Notes: generated from the letters alone by a model not told the origin. Shown: positions 16,381 to 54,042, counted from the stretch's first letter. The stretch is DNA of 64,000 bases from Candidatus Iainarchaeum sp. (GCA_043809245.1 JAZDDZ010000054.1:32001-96000), one strand, 5' to 3'. A program made the numbers and translations.

Positions 16381-16902
16381 ATGGGCGAAAGCAACAACCA
16401 CATGAGGGAAATAGAGATTGAAAAGGTCACGGTAAACATGGGTGTTGGCCAGACAGGGCAGGAACTCGACAAGGCATGCACTATCCTTGAGAACATCACG
16501 GGAATGAAGCCATTGAGGACTTCATGCAAGGTCAGGATTCCGACCTGGGGTATAAGGGAAGGCCTGCTTATCGGCGCGAAGGTTACCTTGCGCGGAAAAA
16601 AAGCCGAGGAATTCCTTAAAAAGGCATTGAATGCAAAGGACAATTCGGTTAAGGGGAAAAGCTTTGACCAGAAAGGAAACTTTGGCTTTGGGGTAAAGGA
16701 GCATATTGACATGCCGGGAGTAAAATACGACCCAAAGTTAGGCATAAGGGGCTTGGATGTGCTTGTTACGCTTAAAAGGCACGGGGGATACAGGCTTAGA
16801 AGGAGAAAAATCGGCAAGAAAAGCATTGGTTCAAGGCACTCATTGAAAAAAGCCGAGGCAATGGAGTTTGTGAAAAAAAAATTTGGGGTTGAAGTGAAAT
16901 GA
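16381..16902 (+). CDS. rpl5: 50S ribosomal protein L5 (uL5)
   Basis: IEKVTVNMGVG, IG.KVTLRG, FD..GNF.FG..EHID.PG.KYDP. Confidence 0.98.
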   Translation: MGESNNHMREIEIEKVTVNMGVGQTGQELDKACTILENITGMKPLRTSCKVRIPTWGIREGLLIGAKVTLRGKKAEEFLKKALNAKDNSVKGKSFDQKGNFGFGVKEHIDMPGVKYDPKLGIRGLDVLVTLKRHGGYRLRRRKIGKKSIGSRHSLKKAEAMEFVKKKFGVEVK

Positions 16903-17063
16903 GCGAAAAAGGAAAACTTGGCTTTGGAAAAACGCAGTCCGCGGGAAAAAAGTGCAGGAGATGCAAGAACAGGCGCGGGCTTATCTCAAAGTATGGAATG
17001 AAGCTTTGCAGGCGCTGCTTCAAGGACGTTGCCTTGCAGATGGGTTTCAAGAAATTCGATTAG
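16899..17063 (+). CDS. rps14: 30S ribosomal protein S14 (uS14, zinc finger), 54 aa, not in the ORF track
   Basis: Manual translation MSEKGKLGFGKTQSAGKKCRRCKNRRGLISKYGMKLCRRCFKDVALQMGFKKFD*. Confidence 0.95.
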   Translation: MSEKGKLGFGKTQSAGKKCRRCKNRRGLISKYGMKLCRRCFKDVALQMGFKKFD

Positions 17064-17075
17064 TGAGATTAATGA

Positions 17076-17154
17076 AAGATTTAGGAAAAATATATAGAGG
17101 AAGGGAATCGGGAGGAACCTGGAACTGAAGGGAAACCTAGGTTTCCCTGCGGTT
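17076..17154 (+). repeat. Dispersed 79-bp hairpin element, copy A (rps14-rps8)
   Basis: AAGATTTAGGAAAAATATATAGAGGAAGGGAATCGGGAGGAACCTGGAACTGAAGGGAAACCTAGGTTTCCCTGCGGTT; perfect 20-bp palindrome at 17129-17148. Confidence 0.85.
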
Positions 17155-17157
17155 CGG

Positions 17158-17181
17158 ATGGGGTTCAAAAAATTTGACTGA
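17158..17181 (+). repeat. Recoded duplicate of the rps14 3' end (MGFKKFD*)
   Basis: ATG GGG TTC AAA AAA TTT GAC TGA versus ATG GGT TTC AAG AAA TTC GAT TAG at 17040-17063. Confidence 0.8.
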
Positions 17182-17203
17182 ATTTGGAGTTTGTGGAGAG
17201 TGA

Positions 17204-17602
17204 ATGAGAATGACATTGGTTGACCCGATTGCTGACGCGCTAGTCAACATAAAGAACCACGAGAATGCCTCGAAAAAACTATGCATTGTCAGGCCTGCGG
17301 CAAAGCTTTTGGGCGAAATACTGCGCGTCATGCAGGAGCAGGGCTACATCAGCACCTACGAGTTCGTTGATGATGGAAGGGAGGGCCTTTACAAGATAAA
17401 CCTTATGGGAAAAATAAACGAGTGCAAGGCAATCAAGCCCCGGTACGCAGTCAGGAAAAACGAGTTTGAAAGATACGAGAAAAGGTATCTTCCCGCAAAA
17501 GACGTGGGCTCGTTGATTGTGAGCACCCCCCGCGGGGTTATGACGCACAATGGCGCAAAGGAAAAGGAAATCGGCGGAAGGCTGATAGCTTACATTTACT
17601 GA
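17204..17602 (+). CDS. rps8: 30S ribosomal protein S8 (uS8)
   Basis: DPIADAL..IKN.E, G.IN.C.AIKPR, IVST..GVMTH, GG.LIAY.Y. Confidence 0.98.
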   Translation: MRMTLVDPIADALVNIKNHENASKKLCIVRPAAKLLGEILRVMQEQGYISTYEFVDDGREGLYKINLMGKINECKAIKPRYAVRKNEFERYEKRYLPAKDVGSLIVSTPRGVMTHNGAKEKEIGGRLIAYIY

Positions 17603-24270: not shown

Positions 24271-24900
24271 ATGGCTGAAGAAAAACAGGAAAAGAAAGGC
24301 GCACAGCAGAAAGACGGGGGCCAGCGCCAGCACAAGCAGCCTTACTCAAAAGACCTGAGGCTCAGGGCAAGGGACACAGAAGACAAGGATGTTAGGTACA
24401 TTGTCAGAATTGCGGGAAAGGACCTTGACGGAAGCCTTCCGGTTTACCATGCGGTTCAGTCAATTAAGGGAATAGGCCAGAGAATGGGAAAAATAATCGC
24501 ATTTGCGTTTGAAAAGGAATCAGGCATTGGCTCTGAAACTCCTTTGGGAAAAATTCCCGAAGACAAGGACAAGGCATTGGAGGAAATAGTTCTGCATCCC
24601 GAGAAATTCGGGGCGCCTTCATGGACACTTAACAAGCGCAGGGACTTTGAAACAGGCTTGGACTGGCACCCTGTAATGAACGACTGGGATTTTGGAATAA
24701 GAAAAGACGTGCAGAGAATGGCGGAGACAAAATCTTACAAGGGATTAAGGCACATGTGGGGCCAGCCAGTGAGAGGGCAAAGGACAAAGAGCACGCACAG
24801 GGGCAAAGGCCCTGTTGTAGGGGTAATGAAGAAAGACGCAGGCAAGCCAGGCGCCGCGGCAGCACCCGGGGCAAAAGGCGAAAAGGAAAAAAAGAAATAA
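24271..24900 (+). CDS. rps13: 30S ribosomal protein S13 (uS13)
   Basis: RYIVRIAG.DLDG, IKGIG, SYKG.RH..G.PVRGQRTKS. Confidence 0.97.
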   Translation: MAEEKQEKKGAQQKDGGQRQHKQPYSKDLRLRARDTEDKDVRYIVRIAGKDLDGSLPVYHAVQSIKGIGQRMGKIIAFAFEKESGIGSETPLGKIPEDKDKALEEIVLHPEKFGAPSWTLNKRRDFETGLDWHPVMNDWDFGIRKDVQRMAETKSYKGLRHMWGQPVRGQRTKSTHRGKGPVVGVMKKDAGKPGAAAAPGAKGEKEKKK

Positions 24901-24911
24901 AAAAAGGAGCT

Positions 24912-24990
24912 AAGATGAAATAAAAATCTGCGGAGGAAGGGGGTCAGGAAGACCCTGAAACTGGGGGGAAACCCTAGGTTTCCCGCGGTT
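24912..24990 (+). repeat. Dispersed 79-bp hairpin element, copy B (rps13-rps4)
   Basis: AAGATGAAATAAAAATCTGCGGAGGAAGGGGGTCAGGAAGACCCTGAAACTGGGGGGAAACCCTAGGTTTCCCGCGGTT. Confidence 0.8.
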
Positions 24991-25017
24991 TGGAAGGAAA
25001 AGAAAAAGTGATGATTT

Positions 25018-48220: not shown

Positions 48221-48224
48221 GGTA

Positions 48225-48304
48225 AAGATTTAGGAAAAATGCATAGAGGAGAGGGGTCAGGATTAACATAAAACTGGGGGAGAACATTAGGTTCTCCCGC
48301 GGTT
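48225..48304 (+). repeat. Dispersed 80-bp hairpin element, copy C (ndk-dut)
   Basis: AAGATTTAGGAAAAATGCATAGAGGAGAGGGGTCAGGATTAACATAAAACTGGGGGAGAACATTAGGTTCTCCCGCGGTT. Confidence 0.85.
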
Positions 48305-48331
48305 TTGAAAAAGTGAAAGGTGAAAAAAGTA

Positions 48332-53936: not shown

Positions 53937-53946
53937 AAAACAGTTT

Positions 53947-54025
53947 AAGATGAAGGAAAAATATATGCAGGAGGGGAATCAGGAAATACCTAAAACTGAA
54001 GGGGAACCTGGGTTCCCCTGCGGTT
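53947..54025 (+). repeat. Dispersed 79-bp hairpin element, copy D (rps24e-rps27ae)
   Basis: AAGATGAAGGAAAAATATATGCAGGAGGGGAATCAGGAAATACCTAAAACTGAAGGGGAACCTGGGTTCCCCTGCGGTT. Confidence 0.85.
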
Positions 54026-54042
54026 TGGAAGGAGTGATTTGA

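Follow-up and report, generated by a model that had tools for sequence, protein, structure and literature searches.

Introduction

MITEs (miniature inverted-repeat transposable elements), repetitive extragenic palindromes (REPs) and bacterial interspersed mosaic elements (BIMEs), the Correia element, and the enterobacterial repetitive intergenic consensus (ERIC) are small, non-autonomous repeats of prokaryotes. Repeats of the MITE type are short, multicopy, hairpin-forming, and non-coding; they lie mostly in intergenic regions, are patchily distributed, and duplicate their target. Element A, the subject of this report, shares all of these traits. It was found in a 64,000-nucleotide (nt) stretch of DNA from Candidatus Iainarchaeum sp. 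(GCA_043809245.1 JAZDDZ010000054.1:32001-96000; the window, with all features given here on its + strand), where one copy separates the end of the ribosomal protein gene rps14 from a second, diverged copy of that gene end. In contrast to MITEs, element A has no terminal inverted repeats, and it varies at its 5′ end but is fixed at its 3′ end. Its flanking direct repeats are variable and 13-53 nt long, instead of the fixed 2-10 nt usual for MITEs, and no cognate transposase was found among the neighbourhoods of its conserved core.

Rickettsia palindromic elements, reportedly treated by Ogata et al. in 2000, are a second point of comparison, as they too are palindromic repeats that occur in frame inside the protein genes of a reduced genome. 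Element A differs in its archaeal host, its unrelated sequence, and its location, mostly at gene ends between long direct repeats; we know of no description of such long flanking repeats for the Rickettsia elements. The third comparison is with archaeal integrative elements, whose decayed remnants are known as cis-mobilizable elements (CIMEs). One report (PMC3293823) describes how SSV1 rebuilds tRNA-Arg with a 44-bp direct repeat, with mismatches between attP and attB being inherited. In elements of the SSV1/pNOB8 type, as portrayed there, the end of the target gene is present twice, one copy rebuilt and in use and the other displaced, and the copies may differ by mismatches from two sources. 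The same holds for element A, in that its direct repeat is the end of the target gene with one copy in use at rps14, at rpoB'', at other gene tails, and at tRNA 3′ ends. Unlike these integrative elements, the insert is only 60-150 nt long, comes without an integrase or a shared att site, and is also found at gene starts, inside open reading frames (ORFs), and inside tRNA introns.

A small, hairpin-forming mobile repeat of the non-autonomous kind has inserted at rps14, and the second rps14 tail forms its downstream flank. The duplication is real and one instance of a family-wide, apparently undescribed trait; full-text literature searches yielded no description of such an element. Its mechanism is only partly resolved. 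Genes abut or overlap in DPANN genomes, which are among the most compact known, and element A is an example of how a small repeat manages to spread there all the same: its copies sit at the borders of genes, tRNAs, and introns, where the stretch needed by both neighbours is present twice.

Two Copies of the rps14 Tail

The window contains an archaeal ribosomal-protein operon, in which Pfam recognizes L5, S14, S8, S13, S4, S27a, and dUTPase. The working rps14 gene (16899..17063, 54 codons in the ORF list; Pfam Ribosomal_S14 at 27.3 bits, cut-off 27) lies between the genes for L5 (16381-16902) and S8 (rps8, 17210..17602; Ribosomal_S8 at 94.2 bits, with the start placed by aligning relatives). 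The last seven codons and stop of rps14, the in-frame end of the ORF, make up tail 1, the upstream member of the repeat (17040..17063). Element A follows directly, beginning with a 33-nt 5′ extension delimited by alignments (17064..17096), which holds an A/T-rich, TATA-like box at ~17086-17096. The conserved core (17097..17157), located with nhmmer and a covariance model, opens with a small hairpin region on its 5′ side, followed by a long imperfect hairpin, and its 3′ end is invariant. The long hairpin (17122..17155) has 17-nt arms, is 88% complementary as an inverted repeat, and is also present in the consensus fold. Tail 2, the downstream member (17158..17181), begins directly after the core's last base and consists of seven codons and a stop that are joined to no gene. 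Next comes what we take to be the old rps14-rps8 spacer, which carries the ribosome-binding site of rps8 (17182..17209, 28 nt). Its length is within the range of 42 element-free relatives (28 genomes of the order and 14 metagenome contigs), where rps14 and rps8 are 5-53 nt apart. Since the stop codon of tail 2 lies 28 nt before rps8, tail 2 and the spacer stand at the gene-end position of these relatives.

Both tails encode MGFKKFD*, tail 1 as ATG GGT TTC AAG AAA TTC GAT TAG and tail 2 as ATG GGG TTC AAA AAA TTT GAC TGA. An earlier note on this DNA had reported the pair at these positions, with 18 of 24 bases identical and every difference silent, and both a reading of the window and a coordinate script bear this out. 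The six differences lie at positions 6, 12, 18, 21, 23, and 24 (T/G, G/A, C/T, T/C, A/G, and G/A, respectively) and include the kind of stop codon. Third positions differ in 5/8 codons, all 16 replacement positions are intact, and the longest identical run common to the tails is at most 6 nt. A repeat finder likewise recovered the pair as a direct repeat with a spacing of 118 nt, which places tail 2 one frame off tail 1. Tail 1 itself closes with two successive stop codons.

A chance match, which the earlier note had named as a means of refuting the duplication, is excluded. Across all six frames of the window, MGFKKFD* is present exactly twice, and among 20,000 shuffles of the 200 nt downstream none reached even six of eight matching codons. 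The public runs found are three DNA runs from one study, with none of RNA; they yielded six fragments of 128-221 nt, five of them identical to the window. None lies within 16527-17195, and they are thus uninformative on the junctions, on strain variants, and on expression.

The Element A Family and Its Flanking Repeats

The 94 nt separating the tails belong to a repeat that is present four times in the window and 11 times in the genome as a whole (1.48 Mb). Across these and related copies, the conserved core is ~60 nt long with a fixed 3′ end, and the 5′ side varies between copies in both length and sequence. The 33-nt 5′ extension is common only to the copies of the source genome and to one metagenome contig, L068 (loci and genomes are cited by our own numbers where they must be told apart); elsewhere it is different or missing. 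No terminal inverted repeats were found in 17030-17200, where the internal hairpin is the only inverted repeat. Over 95 matches, 94.7% of the cells in the paired columns of the core are paired and 10 of 15 pairs show compensatory change, values that none of 500 shuffles reached, in an alignment that was fitted to the covariance model and thereby favours the structure.

That covariance model, which was made from the genome's own 11 copies, finds the element in 10 of 151 genomes of the order, the source genome included, with a patchy distribution over families. A degenerate core pattern matched at least 113 places in collections holding one genome per species, mostly metagenome-assembled genomes (MAGs) labelled Micrarchaeota; the other labels among the matches listed are Iainarchaeum, Altiarchaeales, Aenigmatarchaeota, Woesearchaeota, and Nanobdellati. 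The same pattern had no match in viral contigs. In Rfam, no family matched the window at gathering scores, and in four loci compared at E ≤ 1 only tRNA matched.

The genes beside the core do not reveal a partner enzyme. No protein family recurs within 400-1500 nt of the cores, in a screen of neighbourhoods that did not extend to every transposase family in whole genomes, and no recombinase gene recurs in these neighbourhoods. Several apparently recurrent neighbour families were rejected as translations of other non-coding repeats. Reverse transcriptase (RVT_1) is absent from all six element-bearing genomes searched (G000, G004, G015, G022, G034, and G047; 75-97% complete). The element may move by host repair or by template switching at its hairpin.

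Many copies of the element are flanked by direct repeats of 13-53 nt that start no more than 3 nt from the fixed 3′ end. What is repeated is either the tail of a gene through its stop codon, the 3′ end of a tRNA, or the first codons of a gene together with the ribosome-binding site. Adjacent direct repeats occur at 4 of the 11 copies of the source genome and at 7 of 20 copies in relatives. Among the matches listed from the pattern scan, 21 of 88 copies have repeats scoring at least 11, and for 16 of these 21 pairs the core's 3′ end and the start of the downstream repeat are at most 3 nt apart; the 88 are copies with a 3′ end placed by script, 27 further pattern matches having been dropped, several of them chance matches in bacterial contigs. 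Perfect flanking repeats of 20, 25, 26, 34, 35, 36, and 50 nt occur. Each locus has its own repeat sequence, and there is no common attachment site.

This family-wide flank rule demonstrates that the duplication belongs to the insertion process, and because flanking repeats recur across the family, the doubled tail is not peculiar to rps14. The earlier note had set target-site duplication aside. That judgement does not hold, as flanking duplications of the target typify the element and several are perfect over 20-50 nt. It is the divergence of such flanks that needs explaining.

The kinds of target are illustrated by several copies of the source genome and its relatives. The repeats on either side of copies 8 and 9 each consist of a ribosome-binding site and a start codon. 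Copy 7 (L033:1499-1590, G000 contig C44) lies between perfect 35-nt repeats in the 3′ part of a gene for an FKBP26-type prolyl isomerase; the ORF now ends in the hairpin loop of the element, and its original last 19 codons stand unused behind it. At L055 and L135, a small ORF begins at the unused upstream copy of the start codon, continues across the element, and terminates 1-3 nt short of the real start, a layout that would allow translational coupling.

At the tRNA-His end, two species of one genus carry a different hairpin insert each (L043:1-330 and L211:1440-1800), followed in both by a second tRNA 3′ end that is perfect in one species and has two stem changes in the other. Both species (G047 and G090) have an insert, and this comparison thus offers no empty site. 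With two different inserts at the same gene end, the target-doubling process may not be specific to the core of element A.

Silent Differences between Flank Copies

The earlier note had argued that a decaying, non-coding copy should gather changes at all codon positions, and this argument proves sound. It was examined in coding pairs, defined as repeat pairs with at least one difference, with the frame assigned only where an ORF of at least 50 codons enters the upstream copy or leaves the downstream one. To the pairs obtained by script, rps14, rps13, and an opposite-strand gene at L135 were added, giving nine coding pairs.

The rps14 pair has six silent differences and no replacement, the rps13 pair four and none, and the pairs at L064 (the tail of rpoB'') and L135 three and none each. 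At L060 and L049 there is one silent difference and no replacement; the copy 9 pair also has one silent difference and no replacement, plus two changes after the stop. The two replacements in the set are found at L126 (I/V), alongside one silent difference, and at L055, with no silent difference. Summed over the nine pairs, the ratio is 20 silent to 2 replacement. A dead copy is expected to show 29-44% silent changes, and even at 50% the probability of at least 20 silent changes in 22 is ≤6e-5. Non-coding repeats (L090, L125, L161, and L177) and tRNA-type or non-coding flanks (L155, L190, L192, L043, L128, and L161) were left out of these counts. L149 was excluded as ambiguous, the copies being located at both ends of one small ORF through the element; by our own reading it has five silent and two replacement differences.

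For the rps14 pair, a working copy restricted to silent changes was simulated alongside a freely changing dead copy. With tail 1 as the ancestor, the dead copy was still coding at six differences in 2 of 20,000 runs; with tail 2 as the ancestor, the peptide was still encoded at six differences in none of 20,000. Decay of a dead copy is rejected for the rps14 pair and for the nine pairs jointly.

The pair at L135 goes further. Here, the unused copy of the gene's first 11 codons retains its own start codon, and the next two codons differ by K/R and V/I through five base changes, in addition to the three silent changes. In sequence, this copy looks like an ortholog and not like a decaying scar. 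The unused tRNA 3′ ends, by comparison, carry changes at stem positions (2/23 in G047, and also at L190), and the working tRNA-His ends of G047 and G090 are identical; the tRNA flanks show only decay because tRNA alleles do not differ.

To our knowledge, flanking copies of a gene tail whose differences are confined to silent sites have not been reported before. The pattern means either frequent exchange of alleles ending at the element or continued use of both copies, and in either case it says something new about recombination or RNA processing in uncultured archaea.

Origin of the Diverged Tails

We tentatively favour, with less than even confidence, an explanation in which recombination with a diverged working allele, ending at the element, gave rise to the silent-only differences. 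Element A would have inserted directly behind the rps14 stop codon, the local DNA being doubled by the insertion process. Tail 2 and the 28-nt spacer would then be the end of rps14 in its original place before rps8, severed and untranslated, and tail 1 the end now in use. In compact genomes, it would be mostly those insertions whose doubled stretch leaves both neighbours whole that survive. Homologous recombination would later have replaced one of the two copies with the version of a working but diverged allele at the same locus. Whether it entered from rps8 or travelled along rps14, the exchanged tract would be forced to end at the element, where homology ends, and the tails would therefore differ as two working alleles do: the replaced flank would bring in sequence under coding selection elsewhere, with the other flank unchanged. 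What the data show is the repeat, the element family and its structure, the flank rule, the silent-only counts, and uneven divergence around the element; the recombination step, the identity of the replaced tail, and any enzyme or repair process behind the duplication are inferred. The earlier note had proposed a donor allele and a displaced resident allele. The silent-only pattern fits that proposal, which is favoured here in broadened form; its assignment of the individual tails could not be made for want of an element-free close relative.

The closest relative found is metagenome contig L068, in which S8 is 89% identical and whose rps14 tail matches tail 1 at the silent sites, 2 of 24 bases being different. 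Third-position divergence from L068 is 25/115 beside the element (the last 25 codons of rps14 and the first 90 of rps8) and 85/187 further out (part of L5, the start of rps14, and the end of rps8), a difference with a Fisher p of 2.8e-5 for segments that were picked after the profile was seen. Viewed along 16555-17602, silent-site divergence from L068 is roughly halved within ~75 nt upstream and ~270 nt downstream of the element. This trough is a hint of exchange at the locus, not proof of it.

Several points weigh against an overwritten tail. In L068, the element occupies the same place and has an extension, likewise of 33 nt, that is similar in make-up, and tail 2 is missing; the source genome has 37 extra bases at that site. 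Tail 2 was either lost in L068 or gained later in the source genome, and we assign no order to these events. Among the 42 element-free relatives, where S8 is at most 75% identical and silent sites are saturated, no source allele could be assigned to either tail; likewise, the relatives of G004 are too distant to show which copy of the rpoB'' tail is ancestral. As for the divergence trough, which was recognized post hoc, local constraint on silent sites could account for it. In the set of coding pairs, several supply a single difference each, and the repeat at rps13 is in a low-complexity, A/G-rich region that makes it weak evidence on its own. Exchange between tails diverged by 25% must also be assumed to start in the adjoining gene and run to the element. 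Finally, no transposase, integrase, or reverse transcriptase linked to the element was found in the neighbourhoods or, for RVT_1, in the six genomes.

A different history, possible but not probable, is that tail 1 arrived with the element from another lineage, as a fragment or small circle that integrated at the homologous gene end and displaced the resident tail. This would account equally well for the silent-only and conservative differences, and the evidence does not separate it from overwriting. Copies in genomes of other families (G022 and G004), where the flanking genes are only 63-70% identical, match the core subtype of the rps14 copy at 88-92% identity, suggesting that the element moves between lineages. 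The unused tRNA 3′ ends beside the element also mirror attL/attR pairs, and archaeal integrative elements rebuild the tRNA gene they enter. Against arrival with the element stand the separate repeat at each locus, which leaves no common site of attachment, and the want of a recombinase gene recurring next to the core. Moreover, perfect repeats inside both coding and non-coding DNA look like target duplications made on the spot, and an exchange confined to 24 nt at 25% divergence is hard to picture.

Selection acting in place is unlikely, although it needs no second lineage. Under this explanation, slippage deletes the element and leaves a hybrid tail; damage to tail 2 would then be lethal, and tail 2 would be kept coding-competent in very large populations until the repeats had become too dissimilar to recombine. 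Direct repeats around a strong hairpin are classic substrates for deletion. At L084, moreover, the core's last five 3′ bases are repeated about five times in tandem directly after the core, a sign of slippage at that end. Selection in place also fits young pairs, in which there are 1-3 differences in 21-36 nt, all silent. It fits the rps14 tails less well, as identical runs of at most 6 nt make deletion now very rare, yet every replacement position is intact. The multi-base, conservative codon changes at L135 are left unexplained as well.

An ordinary duplication in which all changes fell in tail 1, with tail 2 unchanged by chance or constrained as part of the rps8 leader and tail 1, relieved of that role, drifting at silent sites, is rather improbable. 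A gene's end also serves, in compact operons, as upstream region for the gene that follows, and tail 2 with its spacer resembles the gene end and spacer of some element-free relatives (the L072 type). At 29-52 nt upstream of the rps8 start, however, tail 2 is beyond the region where ribosomes usually bind, and it is absent from L068. If neutral, tail 2 should have changed, given third-position divergence of 5/8 between the tails against 25/115 to L068 around the element. The silent-only pattern also recurs at loci with different neighbours.

RNA-Level Use and tRNA Introns

The earlier note had offered, as its second suggestion, that the downstream tail is still used through splicing or bypass. 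In the form considered here, the element is intron-like and is removed from some transcripts by a splicing endonuclease of broad specificity and a ligase, or else is skipped by ribosomes, and both tails would be translated and under selection. We regard this as doubtful. What speaks for it is the association of the core with tRNA genes. Among 129 core loci, ARAGORN places the core inside the predicted intron of eight tRNA genes (Thr ×3, Arg ×2, Leu, Phe, and Glu). Four of these are confirmed by the Rfam tRNA model (L093, L160, L099, and L124), the others resting on ARAGORN (L097, L182, L183, and L195). In the three tRNA-Thr genes, 0-3 nt separate the 3′ end of the core from the second exon. 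Broad substrate specificity is reported for the splicing endonuclease of Micrarchaeum (PMC3239211 and PMC3488258).

A tRNA lies within 160 nt of the core at 26 of the 129 loci. At L098, L174, L133, and L123, the core's 3′ end is no more than 3 nt from the 5′ or 3′ end of a tRNA, in either orientation. The tRNA-Thr, tRNA-Arg, and other tRNA genes whose long introns hold a core belong to MAGs of the Micrarchaeota type.

Use of tail 2 at the RNA level is opposed by several observations. No bulge-helix-bulge, with its two 3-nt bulges set 4 bp apart at the borders, was seen in folds of the rps14 region and of two intron-bearing pre-tRNAs, judged by eye with no dedicated motif search, and the direct repeats are unable to pair with each other. 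Two of the eight tRNA introns, and L135 as well, carry the core on the opposite strand. Copies inside ORFs are open in one frame, as expected if they are translated and not removed. At rps14 itself, tail 1 has its own stop codons, so that no removal is needed, tail 2 is out of frame, and L068 does without it. Introns and gene borders may simply be harmless places for an insert. Programmed bypass, as in T4 gene 60 or the mitochondrial byp elements, was rejected in view of the double stop in tail 1, a protein that is complete without tail 2, and the 118-nt gap.

A more general version, to which we give equally little credence, holds that the core is a mobile, intron-like RNA element of DPANN archaea that spreads into tRNA introns and mRNA ends and is cut at its fixed 3′ end by the splicing endonuclease, the doubled ends yielding one and the same product from transcripts with and without processing and so keeping both copies under coding selection. 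If true, it would be the first case of an intron-like element that has spread widely among an archaeon's protein-coding operons and would provide a concrete route for the arrival of archaeal tRNA introns, a question that a 2026 preprint (10.64898/2026.10.13.758758) calls open. The presence of the core in several tRNA introns bears on the gain of such introns in any event.

Very improbable, lastly, is an assembly chimera of two strains with and without the element: the genome is a metagenome bin in 55 contigs, but its estimated contamination is 0.89%, the join of core and tail 2 shares no long word with any plausible partner, the same architecture is found in other assemblies from other projects, and L068 independently carries the element at the rps14 site.

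Relation to Other Described Systems

Further systems resemble element A in part. The introns of archaeal tRNA genes are like the core in location, as the core occupies introns of several tRNA genes and ends at the intron-exon border in tRNA-Thr; they differ in that no bulge-helix-bulge built by the core was seen by eye, the core occurs in both orientations, and most copies are outside tRNA genes. Insertion sequences of the IS1634/IS1549 type share variable target duplications of tens of bases, but they are full bacterial insertion sequences with a transposase and inverted ends. GC-rich hairpins of organelles and mycobacterial interspersed repetitive units (MIRUs) are likewise small hairpin repeats that lie at gene borders or in frame and spare the genes, in other hosts and with other sequences. 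A retroposon resembling short interspersed nuclear elements (SINEs) would show the variable flank duplication, fixed 3′ end, and variable 5′ end of element A; against this likeness stands the absence of RVT_1 from the six element-bearing genomes. A diversity-generating retroelement was rejected for the same absence and for differences that are not confined to template adenines. Presumably element A is not an integron attC site either, as it does not fit the box consensus that we take to define one.

Taken together, the long and variable flank duplications, the fixed 3′ end, and the lack of a linked enzyme point to a mode of movement that fits no described prokaryotic element.

Other Copies of the Element

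The remaining three copies in the window were placed with the same covariance model. The second (24908..24998, 92.4 bits) lies between rps13 and rps4, which have Pfam matches to S13 and S4, and may be the site of a second tail duplication: the last five codons and stop of rps13 (24883-24900) recur at 24994-25011 with four differences, all silent. The third (48221..48312, 99.3 bits) is upstream of a dUTPase gene (Pfam dUTPase), and the fourth (53943..54033, 95.6 bits) is upstream of rps27ae (Pfam Ribosomal_S27).

Two of the genome's 11 copies, 6 and 10, are inside ORFs, where the same reading frame of the element is used and kept open. Copy 10 (L036:1501-1588, G000 contig C9) is in frame inside a phosphoglucomutase/phosphomannomutase gene, to which it adds ~30 residues between the domains PGM_PMM_I (ending at residue 135) and PGM_PMM_II (starting at residue 186). 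Copy 6 (L032:1498-1588, G000 contig C49) is in frame in the N-terminal part of an ORF of >600 codons that also holds an intein with a LAGLIDADG domain.

Among relatives, the copy at L064:1497-1690 (G004) lies between the two halves of a gene for RNA polymerase B that is split. Nine of ten relatives compared have these halves overlapping by 3-14 nt, and the tenth has them 12 nt apart. At L090, L125, L161, and L177, which belong to one MAG and a relative, at least two further families of non-coding repeats lie beside the core; an apparent case of a gene split by the element at L090 was rejected, as the ORF is the translation of another such repeat. L131 has two cores at a distance of 118 nt, and a 71-nt repeat unit lies both between them and on either side of them; this small tandem array was probably formed by unequal exchange between flanks.

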